Positions 20,963-40,712 are shown, counted from the first letter of the stretch. The stretch is DNA of 49,299 bases from an uncultured Victivallales bacterium (GCA_964583785.1 CAZOXS010000022.1:1-49299); one strand, 5' to 3'. Translations and numbers: made by a program. The notes: generated from the sequence alone by a model not told the origin.

Positions 20963-21390
20963 TGATGACGATGCTGAAAAACAGTTTGTGCGTATTGATG
21001 GGGATTGGACTGCTCGCGATGACTGCGTGCGCCAAGGATGCCGAGACGCCGGCACCGGCGGCCGAGGCGAAGGTCGCCTTGCCGAAGCTGGTCGATCTGG
21101 GTGCCAAGGCTTGCATCCCCTGCAAGAAGATGGCCCCGATCCTGGAGGAACTGACCACGGAATACAAAGGCGTCTTCGATGTCGAGTTCATCGATGTCTG
21201 GCAACCCGAGAACCAGGAAAAAGCCAAGACTTACGGGATCAAGTCGATCCCGACGCAGATTTTCCTGGACTCCAAAGGTAAGGAACTGGGGCGTCATGAG
21301 GGTTTCATCGCCAAAGAGGATATCCTGAAGAAGTGGCAAGCACTTGGCGTGAGTATTAAGACGAAAGCGGATATGGAACACAACGAATGA
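20959..21390 (+). CDS. thioredoxin-fold lipoprotein (CxxC)
   Basis: Internal ATG 20959 of track ORF 20599..21390, preceded by AGGAGG. MMMTMLKNSLCVLMGIGLLAMTAC (lipobox), KACIPCKKMAPILEEL, IPTQIFLDSKGKEL. The last codons (MEHNE-stop) lie inside the first 16-nt repeat unit. Confidence 0.8.
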   Translation: MMMTMLKNSLCVLMGIGLLAMTACAKDAETPAPAAEAKVALPKLVDLGAKACIPCKKMAPILEELTTEYKGVFDVEFIDVWQPENQEKAKTYGIKSIPTQIFLDSKGKELGRHEGFIAKEDILKKWQALGVSIKTKADMEHNE

Positions 21391-21523
21391 TCGACACAAC
21401 GAATATGGGACACAACGAATTTTTTGCACAACGAATATGGAACACAGCAAATGGGGAATCATATAATATGGTAACGATGTTCACCCTTATTCCCATTCGT
21501 TGTGCAGCCCATTCGTTGTGCAA
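21379..21523. repeat. 16-nt tandem-unit palindrome: 5 forward units (CACAACGAATATGGRA) followed by 2 inverted units
   Basis: CACAACGAAT at 21379, 21395, 21411 and 21427, plus degenerate CACAGCAAAT at 21443 (exact 16-nt phase). Inverted ATTCGTTGTG at 21495 and 21511. GGGAAT/ATTCCC extends the stem around a loop of about 30 nt. Confidence 0.9.
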
Positions 21524-21570
21524 ATACATTCCTTTTTTACCGCAACTTCTCTTCCCCTATTCATTACGTA

Positions 21571-22395
21571 ATGCAATCACAAGGTGACAATGTGACTAAT
21601 GCTTTGAACGATAATCTTATCTATCCTGAGTTGTCCTACAAGATCATGGGCGCGGCGATGCACGTCCATAATCAACTGGGGCCTGGGTGGGATGAAGATG
21701 CCTATCATTCTGCATTACTACACGCGTTGCGAAAAGCCAGCCTTAAAACAGAAAGCAAGCTGCGAGGTGTGCTTAAACAGCGCGAGCTGTATGCTGACAC
21801 ATTTGAGCTGGACATCCTTGTCGAAGATTCGATCATTCTGGAATTAAAACACCTTGTGGGCAAGTTTCACCCCGCTCACATGATTCAATTGATCAATTAT
21901 CAGAAATTCTGGAAGAAACAATTAGGAATTCTGCTCAACTTTGGTCTTGATCGCCTTCAATTTGAACGGATCCCCTTTACTCCGCGTACCGGCCCATTAA
22001 CCAGTAACGATGCCTACAAACACTTTCAGGAAACCAACCCCGCAAAAGCGAACCACGTTGAATCCATTCTTCAAGCAATTGTGGACGCCCACGGGCTTGG
22101 ATATGGCACCTATGTCTACCGCAATCTTGTACGTACCGAATGTCATTTCAAAAACTGCTCCTGCGAAATGCCGGTCATCCCTCTTTATTACGACTCTTTA
22201 ATGCTCGGGGAAAAACAGGCAGACGTTCTCTGCCTTGATTCCGATCTGCTGCTATTAGTGAATGCTCAGCGCGAAAAAACCTCCGATATTCTTTTAGCGC
22301 GCATGTTGAGCTACCTTCGCAAAACCAATTTATCTGATGGCATTATCGCCACCTTTGGATCTAACGAACTATACCTCAAATATGTTTCCCCATAA
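21571..22395 (+). CDS. tandem GxxExxY-type (PD-(D/E)XK-like) protein; the second copy is degenerate
   Basis: ATG 21571 lies within ORF 21502..22395. The N-half has the family pattern (YPELSYKIMGAAMHVHNQLGPGWDEDAYHSALLHALRKASL...FELDILVEDSIILELKHL...LINYQKFWKKQLGILLNFG). The C-half repeats the pattern weakly (GLGYGTYVYRNLV...ADVLCLDSDLLLLVNAQRE...LSYLRKTNLSDGIIATFG). Visibly more AT-rich than its neighbours. Confidence 0.65.
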   Translation: MQSQGDNVTNALNDNLIYPELSYKIMGAAMHVHNQLGPGWDEDAYHSALLHALRKASLKTESKLRGVLKQRELYADTFELDILVEDSIILELKHLVGKFHPAHMIQLINYQKFWKKQLGILLNFGLDRLQFERIPFTPRTGPLTSNDAYKHFQETNPAKANHVESILQAIVDAHGLGYGTYVYRNLVRTECHFKNCSCEMPVIPLYYDSLMLGEKQADVLCLDSDLLLLVNAQREKTSDILLARMLSYLRKTNLSDGIIATFGSNELYLKYVSP

Positions 22396-22401
22396 CCTCA
22401 A

Positions 22402-22465
22402 ACATTCGCTGTGCAAAAACATTCGCTGTGCAACTCATTCGCTGTGCAAAAACATTCGTTGTGAA
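22402..22465. repeat. 4 inverted copies of the same 16/17-nt unit (CATTCGYTGTGCAAAAA)
   Basis: CATTCG at 22402, 22419, 22435 and 22452. This is the reverse complement of the upstream CACARCGAATG units. Confidence 0.9.
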
Positions 22466-23718: not shown

Positions 23719-23946
23719 ATGGTAACGGCAAAAGTATTCAAGTCGGGGCGGAGTCAGGCGGTACGGGTGCCAATGCGTTATCGCTTTCACTCCTCCGAGG
23801 TTAATGTACTGGCGACGGCAGACGGTCTACTACTGACGGAAAAAGGACCGTGGGAACTGTTCCGGGAAGGCGTTGACGAGCTGTCTGGTGACTTTATGCC
23901 TGACCGTGTCCAGCCGCCACTCGAGGATCGGGTTTCCCTGGCATGA
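23719..23946 (+). CDS. vapB: VapB-type antitoxin (AbrB/SpoVT fold)
   Basis: MVTAKVFKSGRSQAVRVPMRYRF, 75 aa, 4-nt overlap with the PIN gene. Confidence 0.8.
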   Translation: MVTAKVFKSGRSQAVRVPMRYRFHSSEVNVLATADGLLLTEKGPWELFREGVDELSGDFMPDRVQPPLEDRVSLA

Positions 23947-24416
23947 GTGGCGGTGCCTATATGCTCGACACGAATATCCTCGTTTATATGCTGCGGGGCT
24001 TCAAGGCGGCGAATGCGGGACGGGATATCCACCAGCGGGCGGAACGGATCCGCAACCGGATCGAGCGTGAATTACGGCATGGCGCGGCGATCTATATTTC
24101 CATGGTCACAATCTGCGAACTGGAGTATGGCGCTGGCAAAGCGGTTGATCCGGCAAAAGAGCGCCGGGCGCTTTCCAAGATCCTGGCTCCCTTCGAGCGG
24201 GCGGAGGGCGATTCCGTGAACCTGCCGCGACATTATGGCGAGATCCGCTGCGAACTGGAACAGGCCGGACAGCCAATCGGGGCTATGGATCTCATGATCG
24301 CTGCGCATGCCCGCTCACTGGGTGTAACCTTGGTAACAAACAACGTCAGCGAATTTAATAGGGTTAAGGGGCTGAAGGTAGCCAACTGGGCGGAAACGGG
24401 CACGTCCAAGGAATAA
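23943..24416 (+). CDS. vapC: VapC PIN-domain ribonuclease toxin
   Basis: YMLDTNILVYML...ICELEYG...GAMDLMIAAHARSLGVTLVTNNVSEF (the acidic PIN residues are present). Confidence 0.85.
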   Translation: MSGGAYMLDTNILVYMLRGFKAANAGRDIHQRAERIRNRIERELRHGAAIYISMVTICELEYGAGKAVDPAKERRALSKILAPFERAEGDSVNLPRHYGEIRCELEQAGQPIGAMDLMIAAHARSLGVTLVTNNVSEFNRVKGLKVANWAETGTSKE

Positions 24417-24421
24417 GCATC

Positions 24422-25053
24422 ATGATTGATATCCCACAGCAAATGGCCGATGCGTTTATCCAGGCCTGCCACCAGGCCGCCGCCCAGCAACTGCTGCGTT
24501 GCAGCAGCGGCAACCTGTCGTTGCGGCTGGATGCTGACCGCCTCATCGCCACGGCCTCGGGAAGCTGACTGGGTGAGCTCACCGCCGAGCAGATTGCCCT
24601 TTGCCGGATCTCGGACGGCTCCCGTCTGGAAGGGCCCCGGCCAACAGTGGAAATCAACTTTCATGCCGGCATCATGCGCAACCGGCCCGACATCGGGGTG
24701 GTCCTGCATTTTCAATCCAATGCCGCCACAACCATCGCCTGTATGCAGCCGGAGAAAATCAACTTCAACGCCATCCCTGAGATTCCGTTCCGGATCGGAT
24801 CGATCGGTCATGTTCCTACCTGACGCCGGGCTCGCAGGAACTGGCGACCGCCGTATCGGACGCCATGAGGCAACACAATCTGGTCATGCTCCAGAATCAC
24901 GGGCAGGTCTTGGTGGCCAAGAATTACGCCGACTCCATCCCGAATGCGGTCTTCTTCGTGCTGGCCTGCGAGATCATCCTGCGCGCCGGCCAGGATCTAT
25001 GCCCGCTGACACCGGAGGCGGTTGCAAGCCTGCGCGCCAGTGGGCGTTGCTAG
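24422..25053 (+). pseudogene. class II aldolase/adducin-family gene disrupted by an in-frame TGA and a 1-nt deletion
   Basis: My translation: MIDIPQQMADAFIQACHQAAAQQLLRCSSGNLSLRLDADRLIATASGS-TGA(24566-24568)-LGELTAEQIALCRISDG...EINFHAGIMRNRPDIGVVLHFQSNAATTIAC...IGSIGHVP. The frame is then lost near 24817 (CCTAC where CCTTAC is expected) and resumes as LTPGSQELATAVSDAMRQHNLVMLQNHGQVLVAKNYADSIPNAVFFVLACE. Confidence 0.7.
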
Positions 25054-25081
25054 GCTGATGTCGACCACGCATAAATTCTAT

Positions 25082-25111
25082 TTGACAGTTAGCTAACCAT
25101 GCATGTATCGT
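25082..25111 (+). promoter_or_regulatory. arsR promoter with embedded palindromic operator candidate
   Basis: TTGACA (25082-25087), 18-nt spacer containing the perfect 10-bp palindrome GTTAGCTAAC (25088-25097), TATCGT (25106-25111). ATG at 25119. Confidence 0.45.
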
Positions 25112-25118
25112 AGGCGGC

Positions 25119-25442
25119 ATGAAAACACAACTGGAGCAATTGAAAGCCTTGTCGGACCGTAACCGTCTGCGGGTCGTCGCCGCCTTGATGAATACCAGCG
25201 AGCTCTGCGCCTGCCAGATCAGCGAGCTGCTCGGAGTCAGTGGGGCCACGGCCTCACGCCACATGGATTTGCTGATCCGGGCCGGATTGATCGATAGCCG
25301 CAAATCCGGTCGCTGGGTCTACTACAAGCTTAGCCCATCATTTCCGCCTCAGCTTCGCGAATGGCTCAAAAAACCGCTCTCGAAAGATCCGGAGATGAAG
25401 GCGGATCTTGGCAATGTGAAGAAAATTACGGGATGTAAATAG
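25119..25442 (+). CDS. arsR: ArsR-family arsenic-responsive repressor
   Basis: LSDRNRLRVVAALMNTSELCACQISELLGVSGATASRHMDLLIRAGLIDSRKSGRWVYYKL. Confidence 0.85.
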   Translation: MKTQLEQLKALSDRNRLRVVAALMNTSELCACQISELLGVSGATASRHMDLLIRAGLIDSRKSGRWVYYKLSPSFPPQLREWLKKPLSKDPEMKADLGNVKKITGCK

Positions 25443-25462
25443 GCTGTGAGATATTTAATGAA

Positions 25463-25564
25463 TCGGCTGACGATTACGGGCGACGATTACGGATTACGAT
25501 TCAATGTTGTCGGGCAAGGAGAGCTAATCGTCCATCGTAATCGTCGCCCGTTATCGTCAACCGA
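25463..25564. repeat. 13-nt tandem-unit palindrome (3 forward + 3 inverted units, 39-nt arms, 24-nt loop)
   Basis: Left arm TCGGCTGACGATTACGGGCGACGATTACGGATTACGATT (25463-25501). Reverse complement of the right arm (25526-25564) is TCGGTTGACGATAACGGGCGACGATTACGATGGACGATT. Followed by CATGTTTTTG. Confidence 0.9.
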
Positions 25565-25605
25565 CATGTTTTTGTAATTTAGAAGAACAAAAGAAGGACA
25601 CAAAT

Positions 25606-26055
<450 letters not shown>

Positions 26056-26154
26056 GGCGCAAAGATCGCAAAGAATAGACAATGATAACTTAGCGGCTTT
26101 GCGAGAAAGACCACCTCTTTCAGACCCTCAGGCGCAAACAAAGGAGAGCAAAAG

Positions 26155-26364
26155 ATGAACGAACAGACGAAGGAACTGATTGCAATCGGAACATCCGTGG
26201 GCGCGCATTGCCAGCCGTGTCTGGCATACCATGTCAACAAGGCGAAGGAGATGGGCATCGCGGAGGACGACATCCGCGAGGCTATCACGATCGGCCACAT
26301 GGTGGAGAAAGGTGCGATGTCAGCCATGCGCGAATTCTCGCAAGGAGTACTGGAAAATGAGTAA
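26155..26364 (+). CDS. small AhpD/carboxymuconolactone-decarboxylase-like protein (CxxC)
   Basis: ELIAIGTSVGAHCQPCLAYHVNKAKEMGIAEDDIREAI, 69 aa. Confidence 0.7.
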   Translation: MNEQTKELIAIGTSVGAHCQPCLAYHVNKAKEMGIAEDDIREAITIGHMVEKGAMSAMREFSQGVLENE

Positions 26365-26671
26365 GCAAATGGAAGTATTTGATCCGCCGATGTGCTGTTC
26401 GAGCGGAGTTTGTGGGGCCAGCGTAAATACCAAACTGGTGCAGTTTGCCGGCGACCTGGAAGCTGTCAGGCAGAAGGGGGTCGCCGTAAATCGCTACAAC
26501 CTGTCGTCCGAACCCGCCGCTTTCGTGCAGAATGCGGTCGTCAAGCAGGCCCTTAACGATGATGGGAACGATTGCCTTCCGCTGGTCCTGATCGACGGCA
26601 AGGTTGTCAGCAAAGGCCGCTACCCCGCCCGCAACGAATTACTGGAAGCCGCCGGACTGGATGCAGAGTGA
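26357..26671 (+). CDS. arsD: ArsD arsenic metallochaperone/repressor
   Basis: Internal ATG 26357 of ORF 26180..26671. MSKQMEVFDPPMCCSSGVCG...LPLVLIDGKVVSKGRYP. Confidence 0.85.
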   Translation: MSKQMEVFDPPMCCSSGVCGASVNTKLVQFAGDLEAVRQKGVAVNRYNLSSEPAAFVQNAVVKQALNDDGNDCLPLVLIDGKVVSKGRYPARNELLEAAGLDAE

Positions 26672-28437
26672 TGCAGGATTTCATCAAAGAGGCCCCGAAA
26701 TTCACATTCTTCACCGGCAAGGGCGGTGTGGGCAAAACCTCCATGGCCTGCACGACGGCGGTCGGACTGGCCGGGCTTGGGCGCAAGGTCCTGCTCATCA
26801 GCACCGATCCAGCGTCGAACCTCGACGAGGTGCTCGGCTGCCCGCTGGGTTCCAAGCCGGTACCGGTTGCCGGATCTGTTGGTCTGGAGGCCATGAACAT
26901 CAATCCGATGCAGGCGGCGGCCGAATACCGCGAGCGCATGGTCGGCCCCTATCGCGGTGTGCTGCCCGAAGCCTCGATCCAGCAGATGGAGGAACAACTC
27001 TCGGGGGCCTGCACGGTCGAAATTGCCGGCTTCAACGAATTCTCGAAATTCATCGGCGACGAACAGGCCATCACGGCGTACGACCACATCGTGCTCGACA
27101 CCGCCCCCACCGGCCACACCCTGCGCCTGCTCAATCTGCCGGCGGCCTGGACGGAGTTCATGGCCGATAACAAAACCGGTAGCTCATGCCTAGGCCCGCT
27201 TGCAGGCTTGGACGAGCAGCAAAAACTTTTCGCAAAGGTGATTGCCGCCCTGAAGAACCCGCACAAAACACGTCTGGCAATGGTTGCCCGTGCGGATGCG
27301 ATGAGCCTCAAGGAGGCCGCCCGCGCTGCCGCCGAGCTGCGCGAACAGGGCATGACCAACCAATGCCTGATCGTCAACGGCCTGTTTCTCAAGGATTCGG
27401 ACGATCCAACCGCCAAGGCCTTTGCCAACCAATCGCGCACGATGCTGCAAAACATTCCGGCATCACTCCAGAAGTTACCGCTCTATAGGGTGCCATTCCG
27501 GGCTGCGGGCATCATGGGCATGGAAGCATTGCAATGCGTCAGCCGTGACGAACCGGATATTGCGCAGAACGCGATATCCGATCAGAAGATCGAACTTCCG
27601 CCCCTCAACGACTGGGAAAGCTTCTTCGATGAACTGGCCGCCCCAGGCAAGGGTGTCATCCTGACGATGGGCAAGGGCGGCGTCGGCAAGACCACCATGG
27701 CCGCGCTGATCGCCTCCGAGCTGGCACAGCGGGGACATTCCGTCCTGCTCTCCACGACCGATCCCGCCGCGCATATCGCGGAAACACTGGGGGCGGCACA
27801 CGACAACATCGAGGTGGCCCGTATTGATCCCAAGGCCGAGACGGCCAACTATGTTGAAAGTGTGCTGGCAAAGAATCGAGGCATCCTATCCCAGCAGGAT
27901 ATGGAACTTTTAGAGGAGGAGATGCGATCGCCCTGCATCGAGGAGATTGCCGTGTTCCAGGCCTTCGCCAACACCGTCGCCTGCGGCACCGGACAATTCA
28001 TCGTGCTCGACACGGCCCCGACCGGCCACACACTACTGCTGCTCGATTCGACGCAGGCCTACCACCGCGAGATCTCACGTTCCGCTGAGGATCTGCCCGA
28101 GGCGGTCAAGAAACTGCTGCCGCGCATCCGCGACCCGAAGTTCACGCGCATGCTGATTGTCACGCTTCCGGAGGCGACCCCCGTACACGAGGCCGCCGCC
28201 TTGCAAGCCGATTTGAAGCGCGCGGGCATTACCCCCCACGGCTGGATTATCAACCGCAGCTTTGCCGCTACCGGCACCAGCGACCCCGTGCTGGTAGCCA
28301 AGGGGCACCACGAGCTGGCGTATATCGAGGAGGTCTGCCGCGACTACTCGGCGCACACGGTTCTGGCCCCATGGATCGGCGAGGAACTGGCAGGCGAGGC
28401 TAACCTGGATATGTTGAAGCAGGTGCGCGAAGGATAG
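26671..28437 (+). CDS. arsA: ArsA arsenite-stimulated ATPase (two-domain)
   Basis: ATG 26671 overlaps the arsD TGA (TGATG). Two P-loops (FFTGKGGVGKTS, LTMGKGGVGKTT) and two DTAPTGHTL signatures. Confidence 0.95.
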   Translation: MQDFIKEAPKFTFFTGKGGVGKTSMACTTAVGLAGLGRKVLLISTDPASNLDEVLGCPLGSKPVPVAGSVGLEAMNINPMQAAAEYRERMVGPYRGVLPEASIQQMEEQLSGACTVEIAGFNEFSKFIGDEQAITAYDHIVLDTAPTGHTLRLLNLPAAWTEFMADNKTGSSCLGPLAGLDEQQKLFAKVIAALKNPHKTRLAMVARADAMSLKEAARAAAELREQGMTNQCLIVNGLFLKDSDDPTAKAFANQSRTMLQNIPASLQKLPLYRVPFRAAGIMGMEALQCVSRDEPDIAQNAISDQKIELPPLNDWESFFDELAAPGKGVILTMGKGGVGKTTMAALIASELAQRGHSVLLSTTDPAAHIAETLGAAHDNIEVARIDPKAETANYVESVLAKNRGILSQQDMELLEEEMRSPCIEEIAVFQAFANTVACGTGQFIVLDTAPTGHTLLLLDSTQAYHREISRSAEDLPEAVKKLLPRIRDPKFTRMLIVTLPEATPVHEAAALQADLKRAGITPHGWIINRSFAATGTSDPVLVAKGHHELAYIEEVCRDYSAHTVLAPWIGEELAGEANLDMLKQVREG

Positions 28438-28463
28438 CAAGATGGGCAACGTAAAGGCGGGAG

Positions 28464-28547
28464 AGATTAAGGCGAAAGATTAGGTGAAAAGATTAAGGTT
28501 GGTCCTTGGCGCCACTAATCTTTCGCCTTAATCGTTCGCCCTAATCT
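28464..28547. repeat. 13-nt tandem-unit palindrome (3 forward + 3 inverted units), same family as 25463..25564
   Basis: Forward units AGATTAAGGCGAA, AGATTAGGTGAAA and AGATTAAGGTTGG (28464, 28477, 28490). Inverted units ..CCACTAATCT, TTCGCCTTAATCG and TTCGCCCTAATCT (ending 28521, 28534, 28547). TAATCGTTCGCCC here resembles TAATCGTCGCCC in the arsR-arsC element. Confidence 0.9.
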
Positions 28548-28627
28548 GTATTGAAAATAGGTTGCAATTATAGGCCTGAATACGAGTTTTCAGATATAGC
28601 AGTACGCAACAACAAGGAGAATGAGAG

Positions 28628-29680
28628 ATGGAAAAGCAGAAATTGGATATAAGTTTTTTTGACCGGTACTTAACCGTCTGGGTGGCGTTGTGCATGGTGG
28701 CAGGTGTTTTGATCGGAAAATTCCTGCCGGGCATCCCCGCCTTCCTCGGCAAATTCGAGTATGCGAACGTCTCGATCCCGATTGCGGTGCTGATCTGGCT
28801 GATGATCTGGCCGATGATGATGAAAGTGAATTTCACCAGCATCACGGATGTCGGCAAGAACCCGAAGGGCCTGTATGTGACCTGGGTGGTCAACTGGCTG
28901 ATCAAGCCGTTCACGATGTTCGGGATTGCCTCGTTCTTTTTCCATGTGGTGTTCAAGTCGCTGATCCCACCCGATCTGGCCATGGACTATCTCGCCGGTG
29001 CCATCCTGCTGGGGGCCGCCCCCTGCACGGCGATGGTCTTTGTGTGGAGTCACCTGACCAGGGGGAACCCTGCCTACACTGTTGTTCAGGTCGCAACCAA
29101 CGACTTGATCATACTTGTTGCCTTTGTCCCGATCGTGGCCCTGCTGCTCGGGGTTGGCGGCATCCAGGTCCCCTGGATGACTCTGTTTCTATCCGTCGTC
29201 CTTTTCGTGGTCATCCCGCTGGCGGGCGGCATGCTCACCCGCGGCCATGTCATCAAGATCAAGGGCGAGGACTACTTCAACCAATCGTTCCTGCCGAAAT
29301 TCAGTAACTTCACCATTAGCGGGCTGCTGCTGACCCTCGTGCTGATCTTTTCCTTCCAGGGCGAAATCATCCTGAACAATCCCCTGCATATCGCCCTGAT
29401 CGCCGTACCGCTCATCATCCAGACCTACCTGATTTTCTTCATCGCCTATTTCGCGGCAAAACGCCTGAAACTGACACATTGCGTGGCGGCTCCAGGTGGC
29501 ATGATCGGTGCCTCCAACTTCTTCGAACTGGCGGTAGCCGTGGCCATCTCGATGTTTGGCGCTCGTTCACCCGTCGTGCTGGCAACCATAGTCGGCGTCC
29601 TGGTCGAAGTGCCCGTCATGCTGAGCCTGGTCAAGTTCGCCAACCGCACCTCACACTGGTTTCCGGTGAAGCAAAAGTGA
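28628..29680 (+). CDS. acr3: ACR3-family arsenite efflux transporter
   Basis: ISFFDRYLTVWVALCMVAGVLIGKFLPG...LLGAAPCTAMVFVW, 350 aa, 10-TM pattern. Confidence 0.9.
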   Translation: MEKQKLDISFFDRYLTVWVALCMVAGVLIGKFLPGIPAFLGKFEYANVSIPIAVLIWLMIWPMMMKVNFTSITDVGKNPKGLYVTWVVNWLIKPFTMFGIASFFFHVVFKSLIPPDLAMDYLAGAILLGAAPCTAMVFVWSHLTRGNPAYTVVQVATNDLIILVAFVPIVALLLGVGGIQVPWMTLFLSVVLFVVIPLAGGMLTRGHVIKIKGEDYFNQSFLPKFSNFTISGLLLTLVLIFSFQGEIILNNPLHIALIAVPLIIQTYLIFFIAYFAAKRLKLTHCVAAPGGMIGASNFFELAVAVAISMFGARSPVVLATIVGVLVEVPVMLSLVKFANRTSHWFPVKQK

Positions 29681-29795
29681 CGGTACTACCGTTGATTTCA
29701 TTCCGATCTAGTGGTCCGACGAATCTCATCGGCAGGCTTGCATCGGGTCGCGATCTCGGCTAGAAATGAAGCACTATGAATGGTGACTACAGGGG

Positions 29796-30017
29796 GTGGC
29801 GATGCTAGCGGCAAAGGTACGCATGGGGGCGGTTGGGGACCAGGACCGTTTCCGGCGTGAGGATATGCTGGCGATGACTCCCGCAGAACGCATTATGACC
29901 CTGATCCGGCTCCGCAATACCCAATTCGGCGCAATCTCCCGTCCCATTCGTGATGGCGGAATCGTCAGCTACCGGACCTTTGATCGGCATGTTGTCCCCC
30001 GGAGACCCGCAACATGA
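29796..30017 (+). CDS. small hypothetical protein (possible antitoxin-like partner)
   Basis: 73-aa ORF with a 4-nt overlap (30014-30017) with the downstream nucleotidyltransferase-fold gene. No recognisable motif. Confidence 0.4.
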   Translation: MAMLAAKVRMGAVGDQDRFRREDMLAMTPAERIMTLIRLRNTQFGAISRPIRDGGIVSYRTFDRHVVPRRPAT

Positions 30018-39260: not shown

Positions 39261-39337
39261 TTGTTGACAAGGTTGACCTTATTGACCCTGTTGACCTTGT
39301 TGTCAATAAGGTCATCTTGGTCAACCCGGTCAAAAAA
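39261..39337. repeat. 9-nt tandem-unit palindrome R2 (5 x TTGAC-type units then 3 x GTCA-type units)
   Basis: TTGAC/TTGTC at 39264, 39273, 39282, 39291 and 39300. GTCA at 39311, 39320 and 39329. Exact 9-nt phase, ending GGTCAAAAAAA. Confidence 0.9.
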
Positions 39338-39351
39338 ATTGCAGTCTGCCC

Positions 39352-40101
39352 TCATGCCGGTCTCGTCCCCTTGCAATCCGGGTAGGCGGTGCATCCCCAG
39401 AAATCGCCCTTGGCCGACCGGCGCCCGCGCATGGGCTTGCCGCATTGGGGGCATTCCGGTGTGTCAGCCGCTTGCTGCTGGTCGCGCACTTCGACCCGCC
39501 GGGCGGTCAGGCGCTCGCGGAATCCGCCGCCCTCCTCGAAGGCCTTGCCTTGCGACTCCTTCAGGCGCTTGAGCATCTTCAGGACGCGGCCGAGCAGGAT
39601 GAGCATGACGTTGGCGACCACTACACCATCGTCGGAATCGAGCCAGCGGGCGTATTTCCGGCGCTGCGCCAGCGCGTGGCGGGCCGACTCATGCACCATG
39701 TCGTCAGTAAAAGGTGCATCATCGAGCGCGATGGCATTGACGGCCTTGACTTCGGGATCATGTACCGACCACGGCAGTTCGCCGCGGTCGAGGATGAAGA
39801 TCTCGTAATCGCCGCGCAGCTCGCTCAAACTCGCGCGGGCGACATCGGTCAGGCGCATCTCGGTGTCCTTCGAGGTCGAGGCGCGCTCCGAACCCTCGAT
39901 AATGTTCTGGCGTCCGCTGCGGGCGGCCTGGGTCATCTGGTCGTACTGCCGCCCCTTGGGGTCGTAGAATTTGTCGGTCTCGCGATGGTCGAAGGTCAGG
40001 AACTGGCGGCAGAACCGCAAGGTATCGAGCTGCACGATCGTGGCAAGCGTAAAGGCGTGCAGCCGACGAAAACCGCCGTGCTTGTCAAAAAGCTCAGGCA
40101 T
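39352..40101 (-). CDS. four-helix-bundle protein (23S rRNA IVS-protein family, with suffix domain) fused to a topoisomerase-type C4 zinc finger
   Basis: Trimmed to MPELFDKHGGFRRLHAF (ATG 40101, AAGGAG RBS); the track ORF to 40428 runs through the repeats and into the tmRNA gene. QAARSGRQNIIEGSERASTSKDTEMRLTDVARASLSELRGDYE matches the family pattern. C-terminal CPQCGKPMRGRRSAKGDFWGCTAYPDCKGT. Confidence 0.75.
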   Translation of the reverse strand: MPELFDKHGGFRRLHAFTLATIVQLDTLRFCRQFLTFDHRETDKFYDPKGRQYDQMTQAARSGRQNIIEGSERASTSKDTEMRLTDVARASLSELRGDYEIFILDRGELPWSVHDPEVKAVNAIALDDAPFTDDMVHESARHALAQRRKYARWLDSDDGVVVANVMLILLGRVLKMLKRLKESQGKAFEEGGGFRERLTARRVEVRDQQQAADTPECPQCGKPMRGRRSAKGDFWGCTAYPDCKGTRPA

Positions 40102-40123
40102 GGGGTGCTCCTTGCGGGGTGGG

Positions 40124-40277
40124 GTGACCTGGTTGACCTTATTGACCTTGTTGCCAATCGGGCCAATAAGGCCAACAGGTTTAACACCGGCATCATACAA
40201 ACCACTATCACCCGCGTCAACAAGGTCATTTGACAAAAACCCGTCAGCAAGCTCAATCCGGTCAATAGGGTCATCAG
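40124..40277. repeat. 9-nt tandem-unit palindrome R3 (about 17 phased units), same orientation as R2
   Basis: GGTTGACCTTATTGACC (40131-40147) is identical to 39272-39288. TGACC at 40125, 40134 and 40143, then TGCCA/GGCCA units. Inverted GTCAAC/GGTCAT/GTCAAT units from 40216 to 40275. Confidence 0.9.
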
Positions 40278-40309
40278 CATGGTGTTGGCCATTGCCGGAA
40301 TGGCGGACA

Positions 40310-40355
40310 GCCTTCGCCAAGGCCCCGGCTTGCCTACCGAAGCCTTGGCGAAGGC
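40310..40355 (-). terminator. 13-bp perfect hairpin abutting the tmRNA 3' CCA
   Basis: GCCTTCGCCAAGG (40310-40322) and CCTTGGCGAAGGC (40343-40355) with a 20-nt loop. No U-tract follows on the minus strand, so the terminator function is uncertain. Confidence 0.45.
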
Positions 40356-40712
40356 TGGTGGAGGCGGCGGGAGTCGAACCCGCGTCCGCAGTGGAGTCAC
40401 TCAAGTATCTACGTGTGTATTCTGCCATTAGGTCTCGCCACGGTAACTACGGACAGACACGCTGTCACCGCCGCCAGTCTCAGCATTGTTTCGCAGGTCG
40501 CGCCTGAGACGCACACGCCCGACTATCCTGCTGTCGTCGCCCCGGTCCGTTTAGCAGGTGTCAACGGCGGAACGCGTGGCCCGTTATTTAGGCCGCGAGA
40601 GCTAATTCAGTATCAGCACTTAATGTTTTGCCCGGATTTTTTACGAGGCCAACCAGACATCCTCGACACGCAACCTCAGCTTCAACCATCACGTCGAAAC
40701 CAAATCGCCCCC
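40356..40712 (-). ncRNA. ssrA: tmRNA (transfer-messenger RNA)
   Basis: Minus-strand 5' GGGGGCGATTTGGTTTCGACG... and 3' ...GGACGCGGGTTCGACTCCCGCCGCCTCCACCA (T-arm plus acceptor with a G3:U pair). Tag frame GGC AAA ACA TTA AGT GCT GAT ACT GAA TTA GCT CTC GCG GCC TAA gives (A)GKTLSADTELALAA, with the stop at 40588-40590. Confidence 0.92.

Follow-up and report, generated by a model that had tools for sequence, protein, structure and literature searches.

A modular palindrome in an arsenic resistance operon as a probable passenger copy of a dispersed repeat family

What is a palindrome with 39-nt arms doing between the repressor gene and the structural genes of an ars operon? The window, which is the whole stretch of 49,299 nucleotides that was analysed, holds an operon with the order arsR, arsC, a CMD-family gene, arsD, arsA and acr3. 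The palindrome, here called P1, lies exactly between the first two genes. A preliminary description implied that it is a device regulating the ars genes, and offered an attenuator, a processing site, an mRNA stabiliser and a protein-binding array as the forms such a device could take. The analysis presented here leads elsewhere. P1 is very probably a passenger copy of a family of modular palindromes that is widespread between unrelated genes in putative Kiritimatiellia-type bacteria and is not specific to ars operons.

Two palindromes in one operon

The relevant features of the operon are as follows.

25082-25111, plus strand: sigma-70-like promoter (TTGACA-18-TATCGT), just upstream of arsR
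25119-25442: arsR, with P1 between it and arsC
25463-25501, no strand: left arm of P1, 39 nt, TCGGCTGACGATTACGGGCGACGATTACGGATTACGATT, made of three 13-nt modules, CGGCTGACGATTA, CGGGCGACGATTA and CGGATTACGATT(C)
25502-25525, no strand: loop of P1, 24 nt, CAATGTTGTCGGGCAAGGAGAGCT
25526-25564, no strand: right arm of P1, 39 nt, AATCGTCCATCGTAATCGTCGCCCGTTATCGTCAACCGA, with modules (T)AATCGTCCATCG, TAATCGTCGCCCG and TTATCGTCAACCG, the inner one of the TGG type
25565-25605, plus strand: spacer from P1 to the start of arsC, with a T5 run and the arsC ribosome-binding region AAGAAGGA
25606-26055: arsC, LMW-PTP type
28464-28547, no strand: P2, a family-B modular palindrome between arsA and acr3, with 32-nt arms (28464-28495 and 28516-28547) that are 81% complementary and a 20-nt loop

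The sequence of P1 is exactly as first described, with arms of 3 x 13 nt and a 24-nt loop, and the gene coordinates bear out its location between arsR and arsC. The arms are 85% complementary (6 mismatches) and the 13-nt units are 77-100% identical to the reference unit. The palindrome score of 23 exceeds the maximum of 14 found in 25 dinucleotide shuffles of the window. The folding calculation that had been suggested as a check gives -56.8 kcal/mol for the 102-nt plus-strand RNA, against -29.2 +/- 3.1 for shuffles (z = -8.8, with 0/200 as good). The minus-strand RNA reaches -55.7 kcal/mol, so that z is about -9 on both strands, and as DNA the value is -34.3 kcal/mol (z = -7.7). An Rfam 15 scan of 24000-27000 returned only sub-threshold matches to microRNA precursors (33 bits, with 114 needed), the noise that long hairpins generally produce. 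Comparison of P1 with 72,556 plasmid and 50,697 phage records gave no match.

P2 is built in the same manner. Its 13-nt modules are AGATTAAGGCGAA / TAATCTTTCGCCY, and shifting one arm by 13 nt gives an alternative pairing with 19 perfect pairs. Its units, TAATCKTTCGCCY, are similar to the P1 unit TAATCGTCGCCCG, and the similarity between the two palindromes has a p value of about 0.003-0.007 in three controls. The motif TAATC-N8-TAATC occurs 9 times in the window where 0.87 are expected, and 8/9 occurrences are inside P1 or P2.

Does either palindrome end transcription? A terminator and promoter scan of 24900-29800 called neither P1 nor P2 as a terminator, and the site upstream of arsR was its sole promoter-like match. 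An intrinsic terminator is a short G+C-rich stem-loop with a U-run directly after it, and P1 was rejected as one: its stem is 39 bp, its loop 24 nt, and its T5 run is displaced. That run had been described as following the palindrome. It is present (25569-25573), but it begins 4 nt past the stem and not at its foot. There is no T-run in P2 or in the family consensus. The claim that P1 is no ordinary terminator therefore stands. The ars genes beyond P1 resemble their counterparts in relatives. As they are intact and no other promoter-like site was found, transcription must largely read through P1. By inference, arsC through acr3 depend on read-through of both P1 and P2.

An operon transcript that reads through P1 and P2 would carry P1 as an imperfect stem of 39 bp, a plausible substrate for RNase III. 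Cleavage by RNase III, or protection of a 3' end, would be the likely result and might uncouple arsR from arsC-arsD-arsA in transcript stability. Such a role is plausible by analogy with the Correia elements discussed below. Any effect on ars expression would be a side effect, and annotations should not label P1 a regulatory attenuator.

Comparison within the population is uninformative. Ten contigs from aquifer metagenomes encode an identical ArsR, and the spacer and P1 are identical in 10/10, so there is no comparative signal. More can be learned from relatives. The nearest genomes by ArsA are two Kiritimatiellae MAGs, L011 (87%) and L012 (80%), and a closer relative, L146, was found via ArsC (89% identical). 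P1 and P2 are both absent from the ars operons of all three. The arsR-arsC spacers of these relatives are short (44 nt in L146) or have unrelated hairpins, and the arsA-acr3 spacer is about 25-37 nt in L011 and L012 versus 190 nt in the window. Hence P1 and P2 are additions in this lineage, although the relatives' spacers have diverged so far that insertion junctions cannot be placed. Read depth is consistent with high copy number. Three runs from the same communities cover the P1 arms at 58, 110 and 32x and the flanks at 4-5x, so that the arms have 6-20 times the depth of the flanks. Contigs break within P1, and their loose ends run into other flanks. The repeats thus break metagenome assemblies, and they could serve as lineage markers.

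Several other observations concern the neighbourhood of the operon. An inverted repeat without periodicity (26037-26116) has 28-nt arms that are 79% complementary and separated by 24 nt; it covers the arsC stop codon and the spacer that leads to the CMD-family gene. Directly upstream of arsR is a broken class-II aldolase gene (24426-25058 in the window, also in L001-L010). The Aldolase_II ORF is called as 58, 126 or 161 aa in different samples of one population, which indicates that frame-shift variants are segregating. The operon is part of a block of metal and stress genes (10402-31498) that also includes a sigma-54 activator, an ArsP-type permease, an AcrB-type RND efflux system (1035 aa), thioredoxin and DsbD genes, a VapBC-like pair (23719-24416), an AbiEii fragment and a chromate transporter.

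Dispersal of the palindromes and what it implies

Metagenomes were scanned with the pattern GATTA-N8-GATTA, a gap of 15-45 nt and TAATC-N8-TAATC. This uncovered at least 119 loci, and the window's own locus is not among the matches listed. At least 63 non-redundant elements with unrelated flanks are present among the matches listed, 24 of family A (P1-like) and 39 of family B (P2-like). A search for 13-nt-periodic palindromes with the core TAATCGTCGCCC had been proposed at the outset, and it proved to be the decisive check. With P2 in the window and at least 119 loci elsewhere, the possibility of a one-off element is gone. The family-A profile matches P1 at E = 4.9e-22 (nhmmer) and the family-B profile matches P2 at E = 7.2e-21.

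Family A consists of 75-100-bp elements with two or three 13-nt modules per arm, C-G-G-n-n-G-A-C-G-A-T-T-A, and its oriented consensus is tCGGtnGACGATTA CGGGCGACGATTA CGGTGGACGAt - loop - cTCGTAATCCG TAATCGTCGCCCG TAATCGTCAACCGa. The inner modules of its two arms differ by a conserved TGG versus ATT, which gives the element polarity. The left arm of P1 is the ATT arm in the consensus orientation, and P1 is therefore a reverse-oriented family-A copy. The family-B module is r-G-G-c-G-A-A-A-G-A-T-T-A, again two or three per arm, and the consensus is gAGATTArGGCGAAAGATTArGGCGAAAGATTAGGG - loop - mirror image. The number of modules, 2 or 3, is sometimes unequal between the arms of one element. Near-invariant cores, ACGATTACGG in family A and AGATTA in family B, span contigs of 46-69% GC and many environments, but the scan pattern forced GATTA/TAATC at four places and left the flanking CG, ACG and CGG positions free, so the apparent conservation of those five bases is inflated, partly by construction. 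Element termini are TCGG...CCGA and AGATTA...TAATCT. Loops are the variable part: they are 7-44 nt long and unrelated in sequence, and sub-families share loops or flanks.

The two families are themselves related. Their profile HMMs detect each other, there are A/B hybrids and intermediates (L031, L036, L041), and A and B occur together on three contigs (L094, L105, L131), as they do in the window. One of the hybrids (L041, 908-985) has a left arm of family-A type (GACGATTACGCACGACGATTACGG) and a right arm of family-B type (CCTTAATCCTTCGCCTTAATCTTTTGCC), which suggests recombination between the families. Separately, one family-A sub-family (L054, L117, L144, L105, L157) has conserved flanks outside the palindrome, with a left flank TTCTATGAAAGAATGAAAA and a right module of about 100 nt, GAAAACGGGGGAGAAGGC...CTGTCAnCnTTGACAGAAC. 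The L150 element has similar flanks around different arms, and this suggests a larger composite element. There is also a third palindrome family, TGATTACACAGATTA...GATTACACCGATT mirrored, in contigs of low GC (37-48%; L029, L044, L067, L078, L079, L107, L119, L128, L130 and others). In L078 and L119 it is located 40-90 nt downstream of short-form GxxExxY genes (131-133 aa).

Where do the elements lie? Nearly all are intergenic, and among the matches listed the flanking genes are in tandem in 27 cases, convergent in 5 and divergent in at least 7. Gene ends are often very close, at 4-50 nt, and family A is found in both polarities relative to transcription. Neither a terminator nor a strand-specific RNA is easily reconciled with the occurrence of all gene arrangements and both polarities. 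The 95 flanking ORFs, among the matches listed, belong to diverse and unrelated housekeeping genes, and no gene family is enriched in them among the 25 top Pfam families listed. The stems tell a similar story. Family-A stems have 0 compensatory pairs. No paired column varies in them, and all variation falls in a slot of 2-3 nt per module, where the arms are often unpaired. Family-B stems have only weak R/Y co-variation. Taken together, dispersal, the absence of covariation and the free loops point to a copied DNA element that is recognised by its sequence, not to an RNA structure selected locally. One further scan, of viral contigs with a three-module pattern, gave 12 matches, mostly direct 13-nt tandem arrays and 0 palindromic, and these are an artefact of the periodic search pattern.

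This bears on the four forms that had been offered for P1. A protein-binding array fits best, because the module sequence is conserved without covariation. A processing site and an mRNA stabiliser are plausible as side effects. The attenuator finds no support. Nor is the implied role in regulating ars supported: the same family stands beside dozens of unrelated genes in any arrangement and polarity, orthologous ars operons do without P1, and the consensus has no T-run.

The proposed explanation is that P1 is a solo, reverse-polarity copy of family A and P2 a sister copy of family B, both of which would have been added to ars spacers in a Kiritimatiellia-like lineage, where they would ride as passengers outside ars regulation. 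With their defined ends and conserved arms, their free loops and their unrelated flanks, the elements behave like non-autonomous selfish DNA, and they may well be of the REPIN, MITE or rRNA-IVS kind. Their modules are most likely recognition sites for a trans-acting protein, for which the best candidate would be a subfamily of four-helix-bundle proteins of S23p type, encoded by genes that family-A palindromes bracket (see below). The explanation as a whole, with protein recognition and the RNA consequences included, is probable, if less secure than the assignment of P1 to the family. Mobility is inferred from distribution only, since no transposase, excision product or presence/absence polymorphism within the population was seen; the ten contigs carry an identical P1.

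What if the elements serve their hosts instead? They could be domesticated REP/BIME-like sites that are kept genome-wide by selection and not by selfish copying, either as arrays for a nucleoid, gyrase-like or RNA-binding protein or as hairpins that stabilise upstream mRNA. Near-invariant cores in hosts of 46-69% GC, next to a free loop and a free slot of 2-3 nt, could reflect a host-level function instead of selfish spread. The closeness to gene ends (often 4-50 nt) and the equal folding of both strands fit as well. Against this, the elements are absent from the orthologous sites of relatives and so are not needed for those operons. There are tandem clusters that include flanking DNA, and sub-families with related loops and flanks, as copying predicts. 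In addition, the elements are linked to a small gene family of selfish type. On balance a host-serving role is unlikely.

The idea that P1 evolved in place as an RNA device, one that fixes how much ArsR is made relative to the structural ars proteins, draws on its position exactly between repressor and structural genes, its very stable hairpin, the T5 run 4 nt downstream and the second palindrome before acr3. The dispersed distribution has already largely refuted it. Members of the family stand beside dozens of unrelated genes, even divergent ones, where no transcript ends, and they do so in both polarities. Moreover, the ars operons of relatives have no P1, P2 and the consensus have no T-run, the terminator scan was negative and the stems have no covariation. 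An operon-specific RNA device is accordingly very improbable.

Could the elements be classical cut-and-paste MITEs, internally deleted from a DDE transposon with multi-site ends in the style of Tn7, Mu, IS21 or Tn402? Direct repeats of a site within inverted ends do resemble such transposon ends, and the termini are defined. However, there is no target-site duplication of 2-9 bp at any boundary offset from -6 to +6 (22 copies of A and 39 of B), there are no TG...CA termini, the plasmid and phage records hold no match to P1, and about 830 kb of loci contain no transposase gene bracketed by the repeats. This origin can hardly be credited. Finally, a purely local origin, in which slippage duplicates a 13-mer and hairpin-templated correction mirrors the change to the other arm, would suit the two or three modules per arm, the sometimes unequal arms, the shifted pairing that periodic arms allow and the other unit lengths (9, 16 and 17 nt) in the same window, but the same 13-mer, ends and TGG/ATT inner asymmetry at more than 20 unrelated loci refute independent local origin, and slippage may account for variation in module number after insertion, not for the origin.

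A candidate partner gene and related short-unit arrays

If the passenger reading of P1 is right, which protein might recognise the modules? One clue is locus L054, where a pair of four-helix-bundle ORFs is located between two complete family-A palindromes. Solo copies in L117, L144 and L105 have outer flanks in common with this unit. As an independent test, homologues of the L054 protein were sought by protein sequence alone and three were fetched. Family-A or family-A-like palindromes adjoin the gene in 3/3 of these loci, or 4/4 including L054: on both sides in L157, as two copies upstream in L158 and as one copy, starting at the contig end, in L156. With one family-A copy per 49 kb in the window, chance adjacency to a gene is roughly estimated to be of the order of 1% per gene.

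The proteins of L054 type give weak PF05635 matches, and the ORF that follows is a canonical 23S_rRNA_IVP. The first ORF of L157 belongs to the LPHERLDVY...DHLDRAMESIGVN subfamily. A model of moderate confidence (pLDDT 68.5) has as its best structural matches 2GSC and 2RLD, two solved proteins of the S23p family. The proteins adjacent to family A are S23p-like. About 90% of family-A copies are solo, P1 among them. Family B has no cognate gene, and its paired copies (L049, L065, L085) enclose ordinary or unassignable ORFs only. No transposase gene, RAYT included, is bracketed by repeats in the roughly 830 kb of loci. We know of no catalytic activity for the four-helix-bundle protein, so it cannot by itself explain mobility.

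Arrays of short units are not limited to P1 and P2. A survey of the window for tandem and inverted repeats found 7 palindromes with arms of at least 20 nt, versus a mean of 0.12 (maximum 1) in 25 dinucleotide shuffles. The following arrays stand beside genes of two families, GxxExxY and four-helix bundle.

21371-21524, no strand: palindrome of 16-nt units, five of CACAACGAAT type and then two of CCCATTCGTTGTGCA
22400-22463, no strand: array of 3.8 17-nt units (AAACATTCGCTGTGCAA), immediately downstream of the GxxExxY gene
39261-39336, no strand: palindrome of 9-nt TTGACC units, about four per arm, immediately downstream of the four-helix-bundle gene
40120-40275, no strand: arrays of 9-nt units, TTGACC x 3, GGCCAA x 3 and further copies of GGTCAA

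The first of these is immediately upstream of the GxxExxY gene (21589-22395) and is a different unit family with the same construction principle. The units of the second are the reverse complement of those upstream of the gene. The fourth is immediately upstream of the four-helix-bundle gene (39352-40101, minus strand). That gene encodes 249 aa, with a four-helix bundle (TIGR02436), a 'four helix bundle suffix' (TIGR04258) and a zinc ribbon of topoisomerase-I type. Together with its TTGACC arrays it lies directly downstream of a tmRNA gene (40356-40712, minus strand, tag ADTELALAA), which is followed by a hairpin with 21-bp arms (40308-40357). A second tmRNA 3' end was sought in the window and none was found, so no island boundary was found there.

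Every four-helix-bundle or GxxExxY gene examined has an inverted short-unit array bracketing it or beside it. The sequence of the unit differs between protein lineages.

S23p-type genes: ACGATTACGG; TTGACC in the window; ATATCCAA in L150, inside the ars operon
Long-form GxxExxY genes: CACAACGAAT / CATTCGYTGTGCA in the window, L151, L152 and L153
Long-form GxxExxY genes: CAGCGGATG / CATCCGCTG in L155; CCGCGGATGG / CCATCCGCGG in L145 and L146

The long-form GxxExxY proteins are PDDEXK_3 proteins of about 265 aa, with unit cores CGAATG, CGGATG or CCGCGGATGG by protein lineage. Wherever both flanks are readable (L151, L152, L153, L155, L145 and the window), a unit array is upstream of the gene and its reverse complement downstream. 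The order thioredoxin, GxxExxY, 157-aa gene, DsbD is syntenic between the window, L151 and L152, and this means that not all array-flanked genes are recent insertions.

Other ars operons have arrays of their own. In a Kiritimatiellia MAG (L150, 3380-4005) the ars operon contains a 23S_rRNA_IVP gene just upstream of arsC. Inverted units of ATATCCAA type bracket this gene, and so does, on both outer sides, a 12-nt direct repeat, CTGACCCCAGAA, which is possibly a target duplication or a recombination footprint. In four relatives, arrays of CCACGGATGG / CCGCGGATGG units with a period of about 20-22 nt begin right behind the stop codon of arsC, a position at which the window has none.

L145, 637-711: array after arsC
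L146, 865-1030 and 1821-1976: arrays after arsC
L147, 3368-3410: array after arsC
L150, 4440-4680: array after arsC

A joint reading of these observations can be offered tentatively, although it is more doubtful than not. The modules might bind S23p proteins, which form pentameric rings in a solved structure, and each lineage of S23p or GxxExxY (PD-(D/E)XK) proteins might travel with its own inverted arrays. The result would be an IVS-like selfish class in intergenic spacers, with most copies lacking an ORF. The function of the S23p (IVS) protein and the origin of rRNA intervening sequences are questions that have stood since the early 1990s, and the joint reading, if true, would offer a first way into the function of two large families of uncharacterised proteins and into how IVSs arose. 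The pairs of protein lineage and unit sequence provide a direct hypothesis that is amenable to binding assays.

Comparison with known systems

A modular family of palindromic repeats has thus been brought to light in an uncultured PVC lineage. The open-access literature that was searched yielded no account of palindromes with 13-nt modules, nor of S23p genes between such palindromes. How do these elements relate to systems that are known?

The cyanobacterial STRR heptamer sequences, reportedly described by Mazel and colleagues in 1990, are likewise short tandem units (7 nt there, 9-17 nt here) in intergenic positions at many loci. STRRs are described as direct arrays, and to our knowledge without a mirrored arrangement, a central loop, a 13-nt period or a link to S23p or GxxExxY genes. 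Identity with the MITE of a DDE transposon was also considered and rejected: inverted arms are present, but there is no 2-9 bp target duplication. No full-length parent transposon with these ends was found in the roughly 830 kb of loci.

Correia repeat-enclosed elements, or NEMIS, of Neisseria form a hairpin to which RNase III binds, and its cleavage or protection alters how adjacent genes are expressed (PMC2649163). P1 is like them in being an inverted-repeat element of MITE size that lies between operon genes and is probably co-transcribed. They are the best functional analogue for a possible effect of P1 on the ars mRNA. Terminal repeats of 26 bp, a TA duplication and a conserved core that contains an IHF site characterise the Correia elements. 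P1 differs in its modular arms, its free loop and the lack of a duplication.

The 23S rRNA IVS of Coxiella burnetii carries an S23p ORF and has a stem of 28-bp terminal repeats that is cut by RNase III; within the stem region the heptamer GACAGAT is repeated two or three times in tandem, depending on the strain (PMC4990558). The palindromes resemble such an IVS in their long inverted-repeat stem and in having an S23p (PF05635) ORF as optional cargo. ORF-less IVS forms of about 100 nt exist, as in the Salmonella IVS. In family A the S23p ORF is found at L054, L156, L157 and L158, and not in P1 itself. There are also clear differences. An IVS is located in helix 25 or 45 of 23S rRNA, whereas P1 and P2 are in spacers of a protein-coding operon and the family is high-copy. 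In L054 and L157 the ORFs are between two complete palindromes and not within one loop. With P1 and P2 in mRNA spacers, and with no conserved rRNA motif in any locus examined, identity with an IVS was rejected.

A classical REP is a 20-40-bp unit with an 8-9-bp stem, a 4-5-nt loop and an unpaired GTAG/CGTC tag at one end (PMC3733652). The 13-mer module is unlike this. It is not self-complementary, pairing occurs only between arms and there is no unpaired tag; CGTC does occur within family-A modules (ATCGTC), but paired and internal. Since the module forms no stem-loop and has no GTAG/CGTC tag, P1 is not a classical REP. It does share the high copy number (at least 63 non-redundant copies, arm depth 6-20 times that of the flanks) and the extragenic location.

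The likeness is greater to REPINs and REP-BIMEs, with their RAYT transposases (Bertels & Rainey 2011, PMC3116915; Di Nocera et al. 2013, PMC3733652). Both kinds of element are high-copy, intergenic and about 100 bp in size, with two inverted arms around a variable spacer that form a long hairpin. Neither has target-site duplications; in both, copies cluster in tandem, a genome holds several families, and the repeats bracket the single gene that is their partner. As in a REPIN, the palindromes have inverted arms around a short spacer, fold into one long hairpin and have arms that are more conserved than the spacer. What sets them apart is that the arms are built from 13-nt modules and that the bracketed gene encodes an S23p-type four-helix bundle and not a tyrosine (Y1, HUH) transposase. 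A P1-type element, a dispersed hairpin repeat whose single-gene partner is bracketed, works most like a REPIN, and the long stem and the S23p cargo are features that recall an IVS.
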